Below are positions 2,745 through 38,572 of a stretch of DNA of 38,572 nucleotides, in pieces. The notes below the pieces were generated by a model, which saw only the letters and a program-made list of their open reading frames with translations, searched no databases and was not told the origin of the DNA. Every line of letters starts with the position of its first letter. Position 1 is the first letter of the stretch. The translations under genes were made by a program, and so were the position numbers. Source of the stretch: a virus; IMG/VR virus record IMGVR_UViG_3300028835_001054; one strand, written 5' to 3'.

Positions 2745-2809
2745 TTTTGCTTCTCTCAAGGCTTCGAAGAGAGCAAATTTTGCTTCTCTCAAAGCATCGA
2801 AGAGAGCAA
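2745..2809 (+). repeat. Two abutting copies of the 33-nt palindromic element (2745..2777, 2778..2809)
   Basis: TTTTGCTTCTCTCAAGGCTTCGAAGAGAGCAAA then TTTTGCTTCTCTCAAAGCATCGAAGAGAGCAA. Flanked by ..TGCGC on the left and TGCGCC on the right. Confidence 0.9.
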
Positions 2810-2940
2810 TGCGCCGGGACGGATCCCCCTGCTATATGAGAAAATTCGATTTCCAGCGTGACACTAAAGCCCTGATTCTGTTGGCTTTCCAATCCCAGAA
2901 TCCGGATCCTGTTCGCCTATATGAGACGCTTCTGGAGACG

Positions 2941-5160: not shown

Positions 5161-5193
5161 TTTTGCTCTCTTCGAAGCCTTGAGAGAAGCAAA
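5161..5193 (-). repeat. 33-nt palindromic element, single copy, 2 nt after the major capsid stop codon
   Basis: Plus strand TTTTGCTCTCTTCGAAGCCTTGAGAGAAGCAAA. The capsid TAG is at 5196..5198. Confidence 0.9.
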
Positions 5194-5195
5194 TC

Positions 5196-6368
5196 CTATA
5201 ACACCTCGAGCCGCTTACATAAGACAGCGGCGTGGACGTCACCGACGAATGTATCGATCCGCGTTGTGAAATGGTAATAATTCCCACGATCTTCAGGGGA
5301 TCTCGCCGCTTCCATGATGAATTCCAGGTGGATACCGACTCCGAAGTTGCCGTTTTTGGTCAGCACAGCATCAGTCAGATCGCCACCAGTCGTCGGAAAG
5401 CCTGACTGCAACGTTCCCTTGATTGCGGCCGTATCTACCCACGCCTCTTTCTGAGCGTCTACCGTGTCGATCTTCATAGTGACAGGCATCAAGGGACAAG
5501 GAACGATTGGTATGCCATTTGCAGTTGTCAGCGTTCTCCCCATTACTTGCATATCACCAAGCTCCGTCCCGCGCTCCTGCAACTGCTCACAGTAATCGAC
5601 GAGGATCTTGTCGTTTACGAAAAACCTGAGGTCAGCAAGGCCATCAGCGAGGTATTCGGAAGGCATTTCCTTATACATCCGCCCGAACTTGATCTCCTGG
5701 CCGAAGGGCTGTGTAGTTTTCGTTTCTACGATCCCCTTTGTCGTCGTGAGAGCGAAATCCGAAGCTCTGTCTGTGACGATATTCGAGGCGTCCAGGATGA
5801 TGGTCGAGCCTGTCGAATCGTTCTCGTGGAGTTCGCCGCTTTGAGAATGATCCAGCCTGTAGCGCCAGCCATCCACCTCTCCCCTGGAATTATCTACCTC
5901 ATAGCCATTCAGATCATGGGTATCCCCTAGCCAGCAGATTTGCTCCATCTCCCGGGCCATTCTCTTCTCTACCATACTGAACAGATGATTCTTGAACTCG
6001 GCAGCGGAGCCAATCGTGAGATCCTCGTAATCTCTGTCTTTGATCAGAAGACCTCCACGAAGCTCTTTGCTGGTCAGCAGGATCGTATCATGTGCGAACT
6101 GCGTCTTGATCTTCGTGGAATCGTACTTCGCTTCAGGAACGAGAAAATCACCACTTCCCCAGGCGATCCCCCTGATGTTCTTCGTCCTGTATTTCATATT
6201 GACTTTTCGAGCGTAGTATTTCATGTTCGAGAGATCCCACGAGCGCTCGATAAAGCCAGCAGCTTCCTCTGGATTAAGCGTTATTGTCGGCAGTGTGAGC
6301 ATTTTATTGATAGCAGCTTGAACGCTAAACTTTCCGCTACTATCCAGCAGATCTCTGTTGCTTAACAT
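5196..6368 (-). CDS. Major capsid protein (390 aa, HK97-fold type inferred)
   Basis: Follows the protease and scaffold genes. RBS GAGGTGA. The N-terminal pattern LNPEEAAGFIERSWDLSNM...VNM is typical of HK97-family capsid proteins, and the size fits. Confidence 0.7.
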   Translation of the reverse strand: MLSNRDLLDSSGKFSVQAAINKMLTLPTITLNPEEAAGFIERSWDLSNMKYYARKVNMKYRTKNIRGIAWGSGDFLVPEAKYDSTKIKTQFAHDTILLTSKELRGGLLIKDRDYEDLTIGSAAEFKNHLFSMVEKRMAREMEQICWLGDTHDLNGYEVDNSRGEVDGWRYRLDHSQSGELHENDSTGSTIILDASNIVTDRASDFALTTTKGIVETKTTQPFGQEIKFGRMYKEMPSEYLADGLADLRFFVNDKILVDYCEQLQERGTELGDMQVMGRTLTTANGIPIVPCPLMPVTMKIDTVDAQKEAWVDTAAIKGTLQSGFPTTGGDLTDAVLTKNGNFGVGIHLEFIMEAARSPEDRGNYYHFTTRIDTFVGDVHAAVLCKRLEVL

Positions 6369-12508: not shown

Positions 12509-12925
12509 TCACTCCTCAGCATCTGGGAATGGATCATCACCCAGACCGACAAAATTGATAAATACGCGTCCTGGAGTATCGATCTCCAGCTTCATTTCCG
12601 GCTTCAATCCTGCGCGGTCCAGAATATCCCGCGCCGCTCCCAGCTTGACGGCCTCCGTTTTCGCGTTCAGCATCAGCTCCTGGAGAACTGGCAACGCATC
12701 CAGCGCAAGCGAGATCATCCGCGACCTGGACAGATCAAAGAGCTCCTGTTTCTTCTGTTCCCAATAGGCTTGCACTTTTGGGATTGTCAAAAGTCTGCTT
12801 GCCTTCGATGCTGCAATGTCATCATTCTTTGGCTTATAGCCAGCATCTTTGTATGCCTGCGTATACGTCTTACCTTCCAGGAGCCCATTGATGAAAAGTA
12901 TCTGACGGTTATTTATCTCCGGCAT
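12509..12925 (-). CDS. terS: Terminase small subunit (138 aa)
   Basis: MPEINNRQILFINGLLEGKTYTQAYKDAGYKPKNDDIAASKASRLLTIPKVQAYWEQ is the typical HTH N-terminus of Terminase_2-type small subunits. It lies upstream of terL. Confidence 0.75.
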   Translation of the reverse strand: MPEINNRQILFINGLLEGKTYTQAYKDAGYKPKNDDIAASKASRLLTIPKVQAYWEQKKQELFDLSRSRMISLALDALPVLQELMLNAKTEAVKLGAARDILDRAGLKPEMKLEIDTPGRVFINFVGLGDDPFPDAEE

Positions 12926-13298
12926 CCTTGATCGCCTCTCGAAATCGCTTAGCAAGTCGCATCCGTGATTTCTGAATCGTCATGGATCCTGCGGCATATC
13001 CGACGGTTTTGATCAGTTCTGCGATGGTATTGATCTGGAGAGTGGTATGGATTCGGGGATTGTCAGGATGGAGCTCGATTTCTGAAAGCGGTAGTATCTC
13101 CGTATCCAGTTTTGCAACGAGTTCCTCGGTGGATTGGGCTGGCCTGCTAAATTTCGGGTTTGCCATTTTAACACCAGGATTGTTAAAACGGCTGGAAGGC
13201 AAAACAAACCCCGGTCGGGAAATACTTTGCCCTCCAACCGGGGTTTGTTTCAGCAAAGGATTCGGCAAGATAGGCTCAAGTATCTTGCTGTATCCCAT
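12909..13298 (-). CDS. ParB N-terminal-like domain protein (start uncertain: 13298 or ATG 13166)
   Basis: ILPLSEIELHPDNPRIHT..INTIAELIKTVGY resembles the ParB/Srx-fold box (HP.NPR). First gene downstream of the predicted promoter at 13325..13353. Confidence 0.4.
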   Translation of the reverse strand: MGYSKILEPILPNPLLKQTPVGGQSISRPGFVLPSSRFNNPGVKMANPKFSRPAQSTEELVAKLDTEILPLSEIELHPDNPRIHTTLQINTIAELIKTVGYAAGSMTIQKSRMRLAKRFREAIKDAGDK

Positions 13299-13827: not shown

Positions 13828-14196
13828 TTAGTATCTCCACATGATTCTCTGGCTTTTAGCTTGATCAGAATCAGCGTGAATGAAATTCTTTCCTACGCCG
13901 ATCCGCGTGAACCCAGCCCGAATTAGCCCAAATATAACAGCAAATCGCTCAGAACTCGACGCCACCCGAATATCAGCCGCTAATCCTACTTCGTGCGAGC
14001 TGGACTTCGATCCGCCGACTGCCGCGTTGTGCGCGTCACATCTGAAGCCGCTGTTGATGATAAACGGAATTCCTGCAATACTCCGAGCCATCTGGAGTTT
14101 GCGAATAAAGCCTATATACATCTCTATCTTACCGCAACAGGGACATCTGAACTCGTCCACCGAAAAATTCTCTGATAATCTTTCAGATACTCTCAT
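13828..14196 (-). CDS. Endolysin, peptidase M15-type (zinc D-Ala-D-Ala carboxypeptidase fold)
   Basis: FSVDEFRCPCCG, GFRCDAHNAAVGGSKSSSHEVGLAADI and FIHADSD give the H..D...H zinc ligand pattern of M15 phage lysins. ATG 14196 follows AAGGAG. Confidence 0.75.
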   Translation of the reverse strand: MRVSERLSENFSVDEFRCPCCGKIEMYIGFIRKLQMARSIAGIPFIINSGFRCDAHNAAVGGSKSSSHEVGLAADIRVASSSERFAVIFGLIRAGFTRIGVGKNFIHADSDQAKSQRIMWRY

Positions 14197-14232: not shown

Positions 14233-14433
14233 TCAAAATACCTTTTTAGGCTTTCCCAACTGCTCCGCTTGATGTATTTCAACGTCAATCAGACGGCAGT
14301 GGATGTTATTATGTCCTGCCCGGCCGCAATATGAGCAAACCTTCGAAGCGCGCGCTATCTTGTCAAATTTCGCTTCCGTGATCTTTGCGCTTTTGCTTCT
14401 CTCAATACATCGAAGAGAGCAAAAGTCATTTCT
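14233..14433 (-). CDS. Startless 66-codon open frame in phase with the TGA of 14434..15114; contains a CCHC zinc knuckle (possible readthrough extension or decayed C-terminus)
   Basis: Codon-by-codon reading gives TGA(14434-36) RNDFCSLRCIERSKSAKITEAKFDKIARASKVCSYCGRAGHNNIHCRLIDVEIHQAEQLGKPKKVF TGA(14233-35). The frame contains no ATG/GTG/TTG. CX2CX4HX4C lies at 14296..14337. Confidence 0.4.
   Translation of the reverse strand, partial: RNDFCSLRCIERSKSAKITEAKFDKIARASKVCSYCGRAGHNNIHCRLIDVEIHQAEQLGKPKKVF
14391..14424 (+). repeat. 33/34-nt palindromic element, 9 nt downstream of the TGA at 14434
   Basis: TTTTGCTTCTCTCAATACATCGAAGAGAGCAAAA. Confidence 0.9.
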
Positions 14434-15114
14434 TCATAGCCCTTTCTGTTTCAGAAAGTTGTCTAGATCCCGGCGATCTTTTGTTTCCCGCTCTTCATGT
14501 GTTAGTTTAGCATCTTTATCAGGCCATTCGCCAGAGATCCGCTCAATACCTTTTTCAGATTCTATCAATTTGGAACAAGCCGCTATGTTGAAAGGTAGGC
14601 AATCAATTTCCCTGAGCGTAAACTTGACAATCGGAATGTCTATGATAATTCGATACCGAAATTCCCCGATGTATTGATATTTCTTCACCAGGTTAAGATT
14701 TGCTCTCTTCGATGCTTTGAAGGTAGTACCTGAAGTAAAATCTGAGATCTTGCGGATGCCATCGGAGATCCGCCTCAGGATCCAGTTATTGGCGCCCACG
14801 TTATAATCCAGAACCACTTCTTTTTCCCCCTGGAGCATATTGAACATGCCCCATCTTCGGCGCTTGCGATGTTTTTCCAGGACAGGACAATTAGCATAAG
14901 CGCAGTATCCGCCGGCATAGTTGACCCCGGCTGGTACGCCATCCGGCAGGAGCTTTCCCTTTCCAAATCTTCCCCTGGACGCAATGACTTTGATGTTATT
15001 TCTGAGAAAAAGTCTGCCAATTCCGCGCAGCTTTACCTCGAAAACTTTACCCCGGAGTTCGCTTACTAGCGGAGTGTTTCCCATCTTCCATTGATAATTC
15101 CATTTATTGCTCAT
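14434..15114 (-). CDS. Hypothetical protein (226 aa) carrying an in-frame long-variant repeat insertion
   Basis: ATG 15114 is preceded by AAGGGAG. No family recognised. Residues DFTSGTTFKASKRAN are encoded by the repeat at 14698..14742. Confidence 0.45.
   Translation of the reverse strand: MSNKWNYQWKMGNTPLVSELRGKVFEVKLRGIGRLFLRNNIKVIASRGRFGKGKLLPDGVPAGVNYAGGYCAYANCPVLEKHRKRRRWGMFNMLQGEKEVVLDYNVGANNWILRRISDGIRKISDFTSGTTFKASKRANLNLVKKYQYIGEFRYRIIIDIPIVKFTLREIDCLPFNIAACSKLIESEKGIERISGEWPDKDAKLTHEERETKDRRDLDNFLKQKGL
14698..14741 (-). repeat. Long (44-nt) variant of the palindromic element, inside ORF 14434..15114
   Basis: Plus strand ATTTGCTCTCTTCGATGCTTTGAAGGTAGTACCTGAAGTAAAAT. Same architecture as 25372..25416 and 35875..35918. 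Confidence 0.9.
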
Positions 15115-15616: not shown

Positions 15617-15737
15617 TTATGCTTCTCTCAAGGCTTCGAAGAGAGCAAAATTAGCTTCTCTTGAGGCTTCGAAGAGAGCGAAATTTTCTTCTCTTGCCCC
15701 TGGCTTTTGCTTCTCTCTGAGCATCGAAGAGAGCAAA
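15617..15737 (+). repeat. Cluster of three full copies plus one partial copy of the palindromic element
   Basis: Copies at 15617..15650, 15651..15683 and 15705..15737; partial TTTTCTTCTCTTGCCCCTGGC at 15684..15704. Confidence 0.9.
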
Positions 15738-18274: not shown

Positions 18275-20245
18275 TTATTTCGGCGCATCGTTGAGGGCTT
18301 CTTGCTCCTCTTTCTGATTCTGGGTAGGTGCCAGATGTTTTGACAATTCCTGTTCGAGAGTTCTGAGTAGAAGTTCTGCCTCTGGCAGCTTCATCATGCC
18401 CATTCGCTTTGGCTTATATCCGATCACATCTTTAACCTTCACCCTGAAAGCAACCGATCCCAGCGTTTTATACTGCGGAAGGGACGTAGCGAGCGCGCGC
18501 AATCTCTTGAATTGCTCTTTGGTGATCTCCTGTTCTTCATCCGGTGGCTCCGTCTGTCCAGGAAGCACAGGATTGGGATTGTGATCGACTATATCCAGTT
18601 GCGGATTCTCTTCATCAGGTTTGGCATCCGGATCGAAATCTGGCAACCGTCGGATCCGGACAATAGCCTCTGCGTAATCATCCAGAGTCCATGAATCTGC
18701 TGGGGCTTTGTGTAGATTTTCGAGGATCCACGCGTCCCGCTTCTCTACGGTTCCGAATTTCTTGACGCATACCGTAAGTAGATCCTTTGTGAGGTTCCGC
18801 TCCTCTTTTTCCGCTGATTCGATTACAGCGTCAATCTCCGCACGGAGTTCTTGCGCTGTTTCCTCTGTGCCAGTTTTTACCGCATCTTTCACAGCGTCCT
18901 CAACAGGCGTGCCATCTTTCGTGACTGGCTCTGGAAATTCTGCCTGGATCAAGAGGATCGCTTTCTGGAATTGTTCCGCCATCCATTTCGAGAGATCAGT
19001 ATCATCAGGGAAGTGTTCCAGAATCCATACGTCGCGCTCCTGGATTCCAGCGAAACAGGTTGCACCTAATTCCATGAAAGTTGATCGGAGTGCCTCGAGC
19101 TCAGGATCGGAATCTTCGTCCTTTCCGGTATCCACAACATCGCCCAGGACTTTCAGAGCTTTTTGATAATCTTCCACTGTCCAGGCTCCGATAAGCTTTT
19201 CTGCAACCGTTTTGCAGAAAGCATCCCTGTCCTGGATTCCAGCGAATACCGTCGCTCCCAATTCAGCGAAAGCGGCTTTCAGTTGCTCGAGCTCAAGATC
19301 GAATCTTCCGCTCTTCCCTTTCGTTTCCTCTTCTGGCTCCTGTTTCGGTTTGTGCGCCTCTGCTCTCTTCGAAGCCTTGAGAGAAGCAAACGGCATTTTA
19401 TGGATGGCGCTGAAAGCCTTTGCATAATGCGGCGCTTTCCATTTTGTGACAGAAGCTTCGCCCGTGTTCTGGAGTTGCCAGGAGTGCCGATCATCTTCAT
19501 TTGCGAAGAGGTCCTTGATCATCCCAAAATATGATTCTCTGAGCGCTGTTAGATCCTCTCCGCTATCTACCGTCACCGATGCCACTTCAGGAATCTCCTG
19601 GGCAGGCTCCGATGCTTCCAGCGGCGGCTCATTATATGCCTGTAAAGCAGGATTCTCGAATCCGCCGCCGAGTTCCTCAGCGATATATGGTAGATGCTGA
19701 GTTTCCAGTCCCGCGTATCGGAGCGCTCGTGTTACAGCGCATTTTCTGAACATATCGCGCAACATTGTCTCCCAAAACCTGTTCGGCTTATTATCGCTTT
19801 TGCGCCGTTTGATACAATCCTCCAACCACGTTTCCCAGACGTGAGGTCTTTCTCTGTCCTTGATCGTCAAAGTGATTTTGCACACTTTGGGATCGTCAGG
19901 ATCGTCGAATTCATACTCAATATGCTCCAGCCCATTAGCGTATGCCACATCCAGATACTTTCTATAGCCCACTATCGTCTGACCAGGTTCGCCTGCGATC
20001 TTCATAAAGTATACCTCGCCCTTTAGCGGATCCAAATTCAGGGCGCGGCATTTTCCCATGAACCAGAAAATATCATCATCTGTGCCGCCTTTGCATATAT
20101 ATTTTCTCACAAGCTCCTTGTTGATCTGGATTGTCTCATAGCTGTATTGGAGCGGCGCTATCTCCGCGCCGGTTCCCTCTGTTGCTGGCTGTCTGGTTTC
20201 CGCATCCATCTTATCAAGTTCTGCCATGTCATTTTTCTGATTCAT
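18275..20245 (-). CDS. RecT/Redbeta-like single-strand annealing protein with a long repeat-containing C-terminal extension
   Basis: The N-terminal third (CRALNLDPLKGEVYFMKIAG..GQTIVGYRKYLDVAYANG...MFRKCAVTRALRYAG) fits the RecT/Bet pattern. The C-terminal ~400 aa hold four ~50-aa repeats. The start is ambiguous (ATG 20245 or 20227). Confidence 0.65.
   Translation of the reverse strand: MNQKNDMAELDKMDAETRQPATEGTGAEIAPLQYSYETIQINKELVRKYICKGGTDDDIFWFMGKCRALNLDPLKGEVYFMKIAGEPGQTIVGYRKYLDVAYANGLEHIEYEFDDPDDPKVCKITLTIKDRERPHVWETWLEDCIKRRKSDNKPNRFWETMLRDMFRKCAVTRALRYAGLETQHLPYIAEELGGGFENPALQAYNEPPLEASEPAQEIPEVASVTVDSGEDLTALRESYFGMIKDLFANEDDRHSWQLQNTGEASVTKWKAPHYAKAFSAIHKMPFASLKASKRAEAHKPKQEPEEETKGKSGRFDLELEQLKAAFAELGATVFAGIQDRDAFCKTVAEKLIGAWTVEDYQKALKVLGDVVDTGKDEDSDPELEALRSTFMELGATCFAGIQERDVWILEHFPDDTDLSKWMAEQFQKAILLIQAEFPEPVTKDGTPVEDAVKDAVKTGTEETAQELRAEIDAVIESAEKEERNLTKDLLTVCVKKFGTVEKRDAWILENLHKAPADSWTLDDYAEAIVRIRRLPDFDPDAKPDEENPQLDIVDHNPNPVLPGQTEPPDEEQEITKEQFKRLRALATSLPQYKTLGSVAFRVKVKDVIGYKPKRMGMMKLPEAELLLRTLEQELSKHLAPTQNQKEEQEALNDAPK
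19361..19390 (-). repeat. Palindromic element inserted in frame in the RecT-like gene
   Basis: Plus strand TGCTCTCTTCGAAGCCTTGAGAGAAGCAAA, read as FASLKASKRA between protein repeats 1 and 2. Confidence 0.9.
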
Positions 20246-23432: not shown

Positions 23433-23460
23433 ATCTGTTCGTCAAATCGGCTCAAAATCA

Positions 23461-23548
23461 TCCGCACTATTGAGTACAGTAATATCCGCACTATCGGGTT
23501 AAATAGTCCGCACTATTGAGTACAGTGATCCGCACTATTGAGTTAAGT
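23461..23548 (+). repeat. Four direct iteron-like repeats upstream of the rep gene
   Basis: TCCGCACTATTGAGTACAGT (23461), TCCGCACTATCGGGTTAAAT (23485), TCCGCACTATTGAGTACAGT (23507), TCCGCACTATTGAGTTAAGT (23529). Spacing 24/22/22 bp. Confidence 0.8.
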
Positions 23549-23571
23549 TTTTGGAGGCAAAGTCAATAATC

Positions 23572-24729
23572 ATGCGCTTTTATAGACCCAGAGACTTCTT
23601 TATTACTCTTTTAAAACGATTTAAAAGGGCGCCTGTGCAATTAGAGCTTGATCCGGACTCTCCCGAATCTTCTTCTCTCAAGGCTTCGAAGAGAGCAAAA
23701 TTTGCTTCTCTCAAGGCATCGAAGAGAGCAAAATCCACCCCACCGAAAGAAGTCAAGGAAGCAAAAGAGAAAAAGCCAAAGCCCTCCCCGGAGATAGTGA
23801 GAAGCGAACTCAACCTGGAAAAGAACGCGGTCTTTGCAGTCTCCACTTACAGGGAAAGGTCCAGGGAGGTCATCAGAACCTATGAGACGGATTCGGGATC
23901 CATGGAGCGCAGAGTCGTTGTAGGCAGAGCGACGGACGGCTCCGAAGTCGGTATCCTCACCACGACTCATTTCAAGCTGTATCTTGCCCTCCTGGAACTC
24001 TGGGAGAAAGCAGGGAAGCCAGTTAGCCAGCCTGTCCATTTCACCGTCCTCAAGTTGATAAAACGTCTCAAATTGGTGGATTCAGGGAATAATTATAAGA
24101 ACATGCTGAAATCAATGGAAGGACTGAGAAGCATACCGATACGATTCATTGATAGCTTCCAGACCAAAGATGGAGAATTCCGGTCAACAGGGCATTTGAG
24201 CGTCCTATCGTACCTGGATATATACGAGAGAAAGAGAAGGACGAAAGGCGGAGATAAGGTCTATGGATACGGGGAATTCCAGTTTGACAGGCACATTCTT
24301 ATGTCGCTTGTGGAAAATTTCACGCACCCTCTTCGATTAGATGTGATCACCAGTTTCAGAAAACATCGGGAACTAGCTATACTCCTCTACACATATCTTG
24401 ATCGCCAATTAGCCTTCAGAAGAAAGTTTGAGATTACGCTGAAAAAGCTCTACACGCAACTTGATCTGTCTCAGGCATACATTACCTATCCATCACAGAG
24501 GAAATCGAAAATAGAGCCCGTTCTGGAGCAACTGATAGGCAAAGAACTATCTACAGGGAAGTTATCATACTGCGAAACCGAGAAGACGAAGGACGGGAGG
24601 GATTATAAATTGGTTTGCAGAAAGACCGGCGTTACGCAAATCCCCGCGCCGGAGCCTGTCAAATTAGATTGGAGCCTGGCCCTGGACAAACTGTTATCTC
24701 AGATGGAGCAAATGAAAGACAACCGATGA
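23572..24729 (+). CDS. Replication initiator, RepA-like winged-helix protein (385 aa)
   Basis: Iterons lie immediately upstream. The central region (GILTTTHFKLYLALLELWEKAG...FTVLKLIKRLKL..GNNYKNMLKSMEGLRSIPIRF...HRELAILLYTYLDRQL) resembles plasmid/phage replication initiator protein A-type sequences. ATG 23572 follows GGAGG; the track TTG 23551 is less likely. Confidence 0.55.
   Translation: MRFYRPRDFFITLLKRFKRAPVQLELDPDSPESSSLKASKRAKFASLKASKRAKSTPPKEVKEAKEKKPKPSPEIVRSELNLEKNAVFAVSTYRERSREVIRTYETDSGSMERRVVVGRATDGSEVGILTTTHFKLYLALLELWEKAGKPVSQPVHFTVLKLIKRLKLVDSGNNYKNMLKSMEGLRSIPIRFIDSFQTKDGEFRSTGHLSVLSYLDIYERKRRTKGGDKVYGYGEFQFDRHILMSLVENFTHPLRLDVITSFRKHRELAILLYTYLDRQLAFRRKFEITLKKLYTQLDLSQAYITYPSQRKSKIEPVLEQLIGKELSTGKLSYCETEKTKDGRDYKLVCRKTGVTQIPAPEPVKLDWSLALDKLLSQMEQMKDNR
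23668..23733 (+). repeat. Two abutting copies of the palindromic element in frame inside rep
   Basis: TCTTCTTCTCTCAAGGCTTCGAAGAGAGCAAAA plus TTTGCTTCTCTCAAGGCATCGAAGAGAGCAAAA, read as SSSLKASKRAK FASLKASKRAK. Unit boundaries coincide with codon boundaries. Confidence 0.9.
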
Positions 24730-25371: not shown

Positions 25372-25416
25372 ATTTTGCTCTCTTCGATGCCTTGAAGGTA
25401 GTACCTGAAGCAAAAT
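25372..25416 (-). repeat. Long (45-nt) variant of the palindromic element, 17 nt after the last late-operon stop codon
   Basis: Plus strand ATTTTGCTCTCTTCGATGCCTTGAAGGTAGTACCTGAAGCAAAAT, followed by a truncated arm TTTGCTCTGG (25415..25424). Confidence 0.9.
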
Positions 25417-32809: not shown

Positions 32810-33219
32810 TCAGAGTCTACCTCATTTGCTCTCTTCGATGCCTCGAGAGAAGCAGAAGGCGCATCTTCGCCAGCCTTTGCGTCCGCAACAAATTCATCTT
32901 TCTCAAAATCCGCCTCTATCTCTTCCCGGGTATAGCTAGTGAAGAAATAGATTACCTCTTTGAGAATCTCGTTAGTGGCCGCCTTATCAGTAAACCCTAT
33001 GCGCGCCCCGACTTCTTCTATGCTTATCTCCGCAGCGTCCCGGAGCGCTCTGACCCAGGCAAGCACCCTGAAAACTTCACGATCTAATGGTCCATCTTCG
33101 TGGTATAAGCACTTTGGTATGGGTCGGGTGATCCGTTTAGGCAGGTTCTCGGCAGCCAGGATAACCTCGTTAAGTGTAGCCTTATCACCCTGTAATTTCA
33201 GTAAATCAATGAATTCCAT
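32761..33219 (-). CDS. Tail assembly chaperone (G-type, 152 aa, acidic)
   Basis: Immediately upstream of the tape measure, with an overlapping -1 ORF. Acidic C-terminus. Confidence 0.65.
   Translation of the reverse strand: MEFIDLLKLQGDKATLNEVILAAENLPKRITRPIPKCLYHEDGPLDREVFRVLAWVRALRDAAEISIEEVGARIGFTDKAATNEILKEVIYFFTSYTREEIEADFEKDEFVADAKAGEDAPSASLEASKRANEVDSENPTQAENQDIASETS
32803..32809 (-). promoter_or_regulatory. Candidate -1 slippery heptamer A_AAC_CCT
   Basis: The zero frame reads GAA AAC CCT, which fits the X_XXY_YYZ pattern. It lies 14 codons before the zero-frame stop. Confidence 0.55.
32824..32856 (-). repeat. Palindromic element in frame in the chaperone gene, 15 nt upstream of the slippery site
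   Basis: Plus strand ATTTGCTCTCTTCGATGCCTCGAGAGAAGCAGA, read as SASLEASKRAN (11 codons exactly). Confidence 0.9.
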
Positions 33220-35874: not shown

Positions 35875-35918
35875 ATTTGCTTCAGGTACTACCTTCAAGG
35901 CATCGAAGAGAGCAAAAT
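35875..35918 (+). repeat. Long (44-nt) variant of the palindromic element, 7 nt after the tail tube stop codon
   Basis: ATTTGCTTCAGGTACTACCTTCAAGGCATCGAAGAGAGCAAAAT. Confidence 0.9.
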
Positions 35919-35925
35919 TGCTATC

Positions 35926-36429
35926 TTAGTTCTCAAGTAAGAACGAGGCCAGCGAACCTGTAGCGCTGTAGAGCTTCAGTATGACATCCTGGACTATCTT
36001 ATCTATATTCGTGAAATTGATCGGCACCCCCAGAGCGATCCCATCGCCAGCGAATGCCTGGAATATCTGCCCACCGAGCATGCATTGGACGAGCCACTGC
36101 ATCTCAGGCGGCACGGTATCCTTATCGAATGTGTAGCTGGTTGCTGGTTCCGTTCCCACCGATTTCAGAGCGTCACTCCCATTCTTTGTTGCTCCATAGA
36201 GCGTCTCAAGAAGTCCAGGCTTGAAAGCGACCTCAGAGATCGTAAATATAATATCGGTCTTTACGACTTCTACATCCTTCAGAACCCGGCTCTGGCCCCT
36301 CCATTCGACTGTCTCAGTGGCGATCTCCGCCACCCATCCGCCCCTGAACTCCGCGACCTCGTTTTCCGCCGCATTCGTGACAGCGGTTGCGTGTGCGTAT
36401 AATGCCCCTGCTAATCCAACTTCTGACAT
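35926..36429 (-). CDS. Major tail (tube) protein (167 aa)
   Basis: ATG 36429 lies 7 nt after AAGGAG. The size and position (after neck genes, before chaperone/TMP) fit a siphovirus tube protein. The call is positional plus paralogy. Confidence 0.55.
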   Translation of the reverse strand: MSEVGLAGALYAHATAVTNAAENEVAEFRGGWVAEIATETVEWRGQSRVLKDVEVVKTDIIFTISEVAFKPGLLETLYGATKNGSDALKSVGTEPATSYTFDKDTVPPEMQWLVQCMLGGQIFQAFAGDGIALGVPINFTNIDKIVQDVILKLYSATGSLASFLLEN

Positions 36430-37814: not shown

Positions 37815-38572
37815 TCAGACCACCATGGCGCGAACTTTCTTCCGCACGTAAGGACGCAGAAGCATATCGGCCTCTCTTAAGCCTGTGAGCGGCTTCTGCT
37901 TTGTCGTATAAGAGATCCCCGCGACTGTTTCTGTACCTTCGCTGTAGGTCGTATAGAGCGTATCATTATTTCTATATCTGGCACAGATGATACATGCTTC
38001 CTTGATCATCTCCGGCGGATCGTTTACCGCGCCGTTTGTGTTATCCACATCCGCTGTCGCTTCAGAAGTCCCGCCGGTGATCTCCTCATTATTCTGAAAA
38101 TCCGTGGAACTCCTGCCTGAAATCTTCAGATATAAGGGATTGACATCATTCACTTTCGCAGTGGCTCCGCTCGTCCCACCGGTGATGATCTCTCCTACCG
38201 CGAACGTGCCTGATATATTATCCATATCAAGCCGCTCAGTCCAGCCGTAGCTTCCCACGATATGGATATTCCTCATCCCGCGCGGAAACAGGCAAGATCT
38301 CTCCACACGTTTCAGCAAATAGCGCAGCTCATGCTCGGTTGTGATATTAGTCGTATCAAGAAATACGGAGTGCTTATCATGCGTGTAGTAGGTTGTGGAA
38401 AGGCTCACTCCAGAGAGCGAAATAGCGGAAACGCTGAGGATATTGGGAATGAGATTGAGATTCAGACGGCTCGCTCCATTTCCATCGCGGTCCACAGCAA
38501 AAGCTTTCGGATAAAAGAAATCCTTTGTCAGTTTATGGATCCGCTCCTCAACGCGATCTATTATCGCCTGCT
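37815..38572 (-). CDS. Head-tail connector/adaptor protein, C-terminal part (5' end runs off the window; true start is the ATG at position 250 across the junction)
   Basis: The frame stays open upstream of the track start (GTG 38495) to the window edge, and is continuous with 250..1 through the 144-nt overlap. Confidence 0.6.
   Translation of the reverse strand, partial: QAIIDRVEERIHKLTKDFFYPKAFAVDRDGNGASRLNLNLIPNILSVSAISLSGVSLSTTYYTHDKHSVFLDTTNITTEHELRYLLKRVERSCLFPRGMRNIHIVGSYGWTERLDMDNISGTFAVGEIITGGTSGATAKVNDVNPLYLKISGRSSTDFQNNEEITGGTSEATADVDNTNGAVNDPPEMIKEACIICARYRNNDTLYTTYSEGTETVAGISYTTKQKPLTGLREADMLLRPYVRKKVRAMVV
38429..38572. repeat. Terminal direct repeat, right copy (identical to 1..144)
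   Basis: Same 144-nt string as the window start. Confidence 0.92.

Follow-up and report, generated by a model that had tools for sequence, protein, structure and literature searches.

The stretch of viral DNA analysed here (IMG/VR record IMGVR_UViG_3300028835_001054; 38,572 nt in full, hereafter the window) carries an open frame that encodes a CCHC-type zinc knuckle and lies between ORF226, an open reading frame (ORF) closed by TGA, and an M15 endolysin gene (Table 1). The frame of ORF226 stays open for 66 codons beyond its stop, up to a second TGA, as a sequence-only reading of the locus had described and as we confirmed. That reading offered three origins for the arrangement: programmed UGA readthrough, a recent nonsense mutation, or a repeat insertion that disrupted a longer gene. 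We tentatively favour a different account, in which the knuckle belongs to a separate small gene that was frameshifted by a palindromic repeat and that stands in phase with ORF226 by chance.

The stop of ORF226 is not an assembler artefact, because the Joint Genome Institute (JGI) window, a Logan assembly (L001) and a European Nucleotide Archive (ENA) assembly (L014/L015) are 100% identical across the locus, although the underlying reads are possibly shared. Gene callers disagree on the start of ORF226, which they place at M1 (226 aa) or M11 (216 aa), and its predicted structure is unusable (predicted local distance difference test score, pLDDT, of 34.6). In-frame ATG and GTG are absent from the 66-codon extension, as had been claimed; the same claim for TTG fails for codon 58 (14262-14260, the Leu of QLGK), which lies 3' of the knuckle and is of no consequence as a start codon. 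It had also been argued that such a frame is unlikely to be noise. Its length proves nothing alone, because the window holds 36 startless open frames of at least 60 codons in which at least the first 50 codons contain no start. The frame is nevertheless non-random, because its motif is rare, because it is homologous to real proteins and because it has been under purifying selection. Of the six frames it has the best codon-usage score, on a par with that of the endolysin gene next to it.

The extension encodes ...KVCSYCGRAGHNNIHCRL..., an exact C-X2-C-X4-H-X4-C knuckle that includes both glycines of the retroviral-type motif. This part of the sequence-only reading stood without change, and the match (CSYCGRAGHNNIHC) is unique in the six-frame translation of the window, where 0.075 matches are expected for C-X2-C-X4-H-X4-C and 0 for CxxCGxxGHxxxxC. 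A HMMER scan of the 293-aa conceptual fusion of ORF226 and knuckle against 1.84 billion representative proteins returned three proteins, namely the ORF itself, P0003 and P0004, and a further search added P0005. The last 37 codons of the extension share 62-70% identity with the C-terminal ends of P0004 and P0005, and all three have a common final residue. The module is matched at a library-wide E of 2.6e-6, in pairwise comparison at 70% identity and an E of 2e-16, and by hhalign with a probability of 98.7%. At the nucleotide level, homology begins a few codons 5' of the first Cys and ends at the stop codon. Nonsynonymous divergence between the module and its homologues (pN 0.21-0.23) is well below synonymous divergence (pS 0.76-0.77, with synonymous sites saturated; Fisher p about 2e-6). 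The knuckle is thus a genuine conserved coding module that has been under purifying selection in the past, and it defines a tiny, previously unnamed phage protein family that ends in a conserved CCHC-type module, with 3 members found among the 1.84 billion representative proteins.

The spacing and the two glycines of the phage module (CxxCGxxGHxxxxC) are those of the retroviral-type CCHC knuckle of the Pfam zf-CCHC group. The module differs from that group in scoring below every curated threshold and in having a second invariant His (H-x3-H-C). The zf-CCHC_4 profile matches it with an E of 0.004-0.005 and 16.8-17.2 bits, under the curated cut-off of 27, and its PDB profile matches are mostly CCHC knuckles (XRN-type exoribonuclease, HIV NCp7 and TUT4/7), but with E values of 0.2-1. 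An AlphaFold 2 (AF2) model of the knuckle has a pLDDT of 66.8 and places the beginning of a predicted helix inside the motif; Foldseek returned no match for this model at E < 3. Judged from the sequence, the knuckle belongs to zf-CCHC at the level of the pattern only, and the second invariant His and the helix predicted within the motif would allow another ligand set and another fold.

Table 1. Features of the knuckle locus, copies of the palindromic repeat, and genes of the knuckle homologues. Coordinates refer to the window unless a contig is named.
Feature	Position	Strand	Remarks
ORF226	14434..15114	-	226 aa, function unknown; ends TGA
41-nt variant repeat copy inside ORF226	14699..14739	+	translated FTSGTTFKASKRA(N); 42-nt gap in the homologous gene of L011
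GAAAGGG, ribosome-binding-like motif	14440..14446	-	precedes ATG 14429 by 10 nt
TGA stop of ORF226, followed by A	14434..14436	-	identical in three assemblies
66-codon open frame in phase with ORF226	14236..14433	-	no start ahead of the knuckle
ATG in the +1 frame, 4 nt past the TGA (ATG 14429)	14427..14429	-	proposed original knuckle start
Mini-ORF now opened by ATG 14429	14355..14429	-	24 codons (MTFALFDVLREAKAQRSRKRNLTR) and TAG; repeat read as FALFDVLREAK
Repeat copy after the ORF226 stop	core 14392..14423 (32 nt); palindrome to 14390-14425	-	starts directly after ATG ACT
A_AAT_TTG heptamer	14364..14370	-	phase suits a -1 shift out of the ATG frame into the knuckle frame; poor motif
Conserved knuckle module, 37 aa	14236..14346	-	homologous to the C-termini of P0004 and P0005; purifying selection
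CSYCGRAGHNNIHC, C-X2-C-X4-H-X4-C motif	14296..14337	-	C, C, G, G, H, H, C invariant in three homologues
TGA closing the knuckle frame	14233..14235	-	same C-terminal position as in P0004 and P0005
M15-type endolysin gene, downstream of the knuckle frame	13828..14196	-	own GGAG ribosome-binding site
Repeat copies in the window	2746-2810, 5162-5193, 14392-14423, 14699-14739, 15618-15737, 19359-19390, 23668-23732, 25374-25414, 32825-32856, 35876-35916		
P0004 gene	L010 3891-4205		follows a 670-aa TIG/PKD/beta-helix protein
P0005 gene	L012 291-605		follows a homologue of the L010 gene located ~1.2 kb downstream of P0004

The two parts of the conceptual fusion have separate relatives. P0003 (155 aa), the sole homologue of ORF226, is 63% identical to ORF226 residues 3-171 and ends there; the C-terminal 55 aa of ORF226 are lineage-specific and have no counterpart in P0003, and no knuckle is encoded downstream of P0003 on its contig. 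Besides a repeat insertion, ORF226 shows a second insertion relative to P0003, of 10 aa (SRGRFGKGKL), at residues 46-55. P0004 and P0005 are stand-alone proteins of 104 aa whose genes have a conserved Shine-Dalgarno (SD) sequence and a GTG start, and their 67-aa N-terminal domain is unrelated to ORF226. A weak patch of likeness between this domain and the tail or extension of ORF226 (PLDVVA--RVLESARGLER against PFNIAACSKLIESEKGIER; shuffle p 0.001-0.03) was rejected, with hhalign unsupportive. Since the P0004 and P0005 genes occupy differing neighbourhoods (Table 1), the knuckle gene appears to move between phage genomes as a small stand-alone gene. A comparison with homologues had been proposed as a way of telling two genes from one, and its outcome was mixed: knuckle homologues do possess their own SD-GTG starts, but their genes are not syntenic with ORF226. 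The relatives number only three, none is syntenic, and the stop and the extension are never conserved together. Searches of viral, metagenome and genome contigs for closer relatives, with ORF226, the alignments A3 and A5 and the repeat pattern as queries, returned only the contig L013, and none was found among GenBank phages.

The repeat that follows the ORF226 stop is one of 14 copies in the window of a 32-nt near-palindrome (TTTGCTCTCTTCGAAGCCTTGAGAGAAGCAAA), of which 20 shuffles contained 0. Three members of the family are 41-nt variants, and there are three tandem pairs whose period is 33 nt; five of the six reading frames through the repeat are open. Copies within genes, namely the RecT-like gene, a 392-aa ORF, a 152-aa ORF and ORF226, are always translated as FASLKASKRA(K/N). 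The gene homologous to ORF226 in L011 is without 42 nt exactly at the variant copy of ORF226, which shows that the repeats are insertions and are tolerated in frame. The copy at 14392 shares the orientation of several intergenic copies and never that of the in-gene copies, which are oriented oppositely; since in-gene copies never lie this way round, its orientation fits ORF226 truly ending at its TGA.

The same copy starts 9-10 nt past the TGA and folds as a bulged hairpin of ~15 bp. This distance, which had been described as typical of structures that stimulate recoding, is correct, but it is not specific to recoding, because other intergenic copies lie 2-10 nt past stops of any kind: a TAG at 5196, a TAA at 35926 and a TGA in the unrelated L013. 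On the last of these, a 1.1-kb metagenome contig (Ga0114925_10287328), a single copy at 514-545 begins 2 nt past the TGA and ends immediately before the AGGAGG-ATG of the gene that follows; the 12 nt 5' of this copy agree at 9 positions with those 5' of the window copy at 14392 (GAA[A/G]AAATGA). The Logan contig L001, an independent assembly, ends exactly at two repeat copies (window 5164 and 15649), indicating that the repeats limit assembly.

Like REP (repetitive extragenic palindromic) sequences and BIMEs (bacterial interspersed mosaic elements), MITE-like (miniature inverted-repeat transposable element-like) sequences and Rickettsia palindromic elements (RPEs), the phage repeat is a short imperfect palindrome present in many copies, mostly just past gene ends and sometimes in frame within genes, and it is missing from one homologue, where the 42-nt gap lies. 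It differs from them in being far shorter than RPEs or typical MITEs, in residing in a phage genome and in keeping to a single constant frame within genes. No direct repeats that would mark a target-site duplication flank the copies, no transposase-like match was found among the ORFs scanned (a subset of those in the window), and no REP-associated tyrosine transposase was identified for the repeat. The suggestion that a knuckle protein might bind the repeated hairpins found no support, and the 7-kb contig L010 has a knuckle homologue (P0004) while the repeat family is absent from it. A repeat family that is tolerated within genes in a single frame and otherwise sits just past stops may be a more interesting object than the knuckle itself.

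One feature of the junction was missed in the sequence-only reading. An ATG in the +1 frame (ATG 14429) lies 4 nt past the TGA and is served by a well-placed ribosome-binding site (RBS). On the minus strand the pattern AAGGG-N5-11-ATG occurs at six sites, five of which start ORFs of 124-961 aa, the sixth being ATG 14429; in its sequence context, then, this ATG resembles a real start. Exact removal of the 32-nt repeat core places it in frame with the knuckle, giving a protein of 54 aa that begins MTSAKITEAKFDKIARASKVCSYCGRAGH..., and removal of 38 nt (the core plus AGCGCA, which is common to three copies) gives an in-frame version of 52 aa. One extra A in the A-run likewise produces a 65-aa ORF from ATG 14429 into the knuckle. 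A search of the gap for a late promoter or a terminator gave nothing over shuffle expectation.

In the account that we favour, ORF226 would terminate at a genuine TGA, and the 66-codon extension would be the body of a separate zinc-knuckle gene that originally started at ATG 14429, with its GAAAGGG site, just downstream of ORF226. A repeat copy would have landed after codon 2 (ATG ACT / repeat / AGC GCA...) and would have left the ATG one base out of the knuckle phase. Ribosomes initiating at ATG 14429 would now yield a 24-aa peptide, and the agreement in phase between the knuckle and ORF226 would be a one-in-three coincidence. The knuckle would then be either untranslated, as a recently disabled accessory gene, or made as a trace product through unprogrammed UGA leak or slippage. 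Two elements of this scheme are ones that we infer, namely the role of ATG 14429 as the former start and the loss of frame through the repeat or through a 1-nt change inside it. The scheme comes close to the earlier proposal of a gene disrupted by a repeat insertion, with the difference that the disrupted gene seems to have been a separate knuckle gene with its own ATG and not a longer form of ORF226. More generally, a startless ORF in phase with an upstream stop and followed by a hairpin can arise by repeat insertion, and this configuration is insufficient to call recoding.

Several points weigh against this account. The natural repeat unit looks like 33 nt (42 nt for the variant), judging from the 33-nt tandem period and from the 42-nt gap that corresponds to a 41-nt core in L011. 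A 33-nt unit keeps the frame, and therefore either an insertion of 32 nt or a later loss of 1 nt is required; removal of 33, 34 or 36 nt leaves ATG 14429 out of the knuckle frame. Neither an empty site nor a close relative was found in the searches, so that the ancestral state is one we infer. The knuckle is perfectly intact, which fits a recent disruption and continued expression equally well. Finally, the N-terminal domain of 67 aa that P0004 and P0005 have is missing from the window knuckle, and a stand-alone form of 54 aa is hypothetical.

The converse view, that the conserved knuckle is expressed solely via recoding, whether by UGA readthrough or by a -1 shift or bypass from the ATG across the 32-nt hairpin, seems unlikely to us. 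Were the second of these routes in use, the phage would be decoding its way through or around mobile hairpins inserted into coding sequence and would in this way tolerate them. The locus does bear some likeness to bypassing systems: in T4 gene 60 and the yeast mitochondrial 'byp' elements, too, a hairpin-forming insert lies between a gene start and its in-frame continuation, and at the phage locus a Thr codon (ACT) precedes the insert and another (ACG, in frame 0) follows 44 nt on. Bypassing of the gene 60 type is defined by a stop after the take-off codon, matched take-off and landing codons, and a nascent peptide. It was rejected here, as no stop comes right after the take-off codon, take-off and landing codons are not matched, and the nascent peptide is 2 residues long.

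Programmed readthrough of the UGA by a fraction of ribosomes, for example with tRNA-Trp, would produce the 293-aa ORF226-knuckle fusion, with the hairpin 9-10 nt downstream slowing termination. We consider it rather improbable. The two frames are in phase and open across 66 codons, no canonical in-frame start precedes the knuckle, the module is undamaged and shows selection, the stop is followed by a hairpin of moderate stability, and UGA followed by A is a leaky context in the E. coli literature. A startless extension behind an in-frame UGA, which would be produced as a C-terminal fusion, recalls the coat-A1 readthrough of Q-beta and retroviral gag-pol, and gag-pol also has an RNA structure a few nucleotides downstream of its stop. 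In Q-beta and gag-pol, however, the combination of stop and extension is conserved and its product is essential, whereas at the phage locus the parts are separate in homologues, the hairpin is generic and the TGA is undistinguished from other TGA-A stops. The arrangement is thus not conserved, P0003 having no extension and P0004 and P0005 standing alone with their own starts, and the hairpin is one of 14 generic copies, others of which follow TAG or TAA stops with short extensions. Read through from ORF226, the repeat at 14392 would be translated as CSLRCIERSK and not as the FASLKASKRA of every in-gene copy, and a well-placed RBS and ATG in the other frame would have to be a coincidence.

The stop codon itself looks ordinary. 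Of 52 greedy ORFs, 20 terminate in TGA, often where genes are tightly joined (overlapping GTGA included), and among the TGA contexts of the genome TGA-A is the most frequent (7 of 17 TGA stops). Genome-wide reassignment of TGA (codes 4 and 25) was ruled out, as code 11 gives contiguous, tightly packed genes with TGA as an ordinary stop. The window contains no tRNA genes, including any for a suppressor tRNA or tRNA-Sec, and no Rfam matches, including to selenocysteine insertion sequence (SECIS) models, even at E <= 10. As far as sequence analysis can tell, programmed recoding at the ORF226 TGA is not supported, and the earlier idea of hairpin-stimulated readthrough finds neither comparative nor contextual backing in the separate homologues, the generic hairpin and the ordinary TGA-A. 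Hairpin-stimulated programmed readthrough would be rare in a double-stranded DNA phage; the evidence favours an ordinary small accessory gene parted from its start by a short repeat.

Translation of the knuckle alone from a near-cognate codon in frame 0 is similarly improbable. The candidates are ATT 14409-14407, ATC 14385-14383 and ATA 14361-14359, the last of which overlaps the TAG of the 24-codon mini-ORF (AUAG) and could act through reinitiation upon termination there. That overlap speaks for this possibility, as do the intact module and the fact that frame 0 is the sole open frame, with the best codon-usage score. Against it, none of the three codons has a convincing SD sequence at a suitable distance, comparative support is absent, and near-cognate initiation in bacteria usually reaches ~1% of that at AUG or less.

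There is a slim chance that ORF226 and the knuckle were once a single gene, as the sequence-only reading had allowed, with the TGA a recent nonsense mutation and the extension a fresh pseudogene tail. The frames are in phase, there is no start, and TGA is one change from TGG, CGA, GGA and other codons; yet the fusion occurs in no homologue and the conserved part of ORF226 stops at residue 171. Moreover, the repeat has the orientation typical of intergenic copies, and the RBS and ATG would again be coincidental.

Very improbable in our judgement is initiation at ATG 14429 with a shift into the -1 frame at A_AAT_TTG (14370-14364), a heptamer that lies three codons ahead of the mini-ORF's TAG; the product would be ~65 aa long. 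The heptamer does have the form X_XXY_YYZ, lies in the correct phase just 5' of the 0-frame stop and follows an ATG with a good RBS. By our own estimate, though, an in-phase heptamer would occur by chance within ~22 codons in roughly 4-9% of cases, and no stimulator lies downstream, where the fold is no better than those of shuffles (z = +0.81). Furthermore, A_AAU_UUG is not among the shift motifs that are efficient in E. coli, and ZZN codons of mixed purine and pyrimidine such as UUG shift poorly (PMC4066793). Insertion of selenocysteine at the UGA, with the hairpin as a bacterial SECIS, is extremely improbable: the hairpin lies ~10 nt past the UGA and has a bulged U and GU in its apical loop, but it is generic and has no Rfam SECIS match at E <= 10, tRNA-Sec is missing, no redox motif surrounds the UGA, and no homologue carries Cys or Sec there or aligns across it.

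The genome in which the knuckle locus lies is complete. Bases 1-144 of the window recur exactly at 38429-38572, and this exact 144-nt terminal overlap identifies a genome of 38,428 nt that is either circular or circularly permuted. The length of the ENA assembly (38,569 nt) is consistent with completeness. The window has a G+C content of 48%, and the majority of its genes are on the minus strand. Among the proteins encoded in the window are a CI-like repressor, a RecT-like annealing protein, an exonuclease, an MT-A70-type methylase, an HNH endonuclease, the M15 endolysin, both terminase subunits (small and large) and a portal protein. Relatives identified by the large terminase subunit (TerL; L002-L009) show no synteny with the window upstream of the terminase. 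A 129-aa ORF at 12909-13298 (minus strand) overlaps the small terminase gene. Its weak match to a ParB-like PHROG (E 1e-4) spans no more than the initial 45 of 217 positions, so that the ORF may represent a truncated remnant; when compared pairwise, it does not resemble the ParB-methylase of L005, one of the TerL relatives. Near the CI-like repressor region, three direct repeats of ~29 nt (AAATCATCCGCACTATTGAGTACAGTAAT) lie at 23455-23551, just upstream of the ORF at 23551-24729, and these may be operator or iteron sites.

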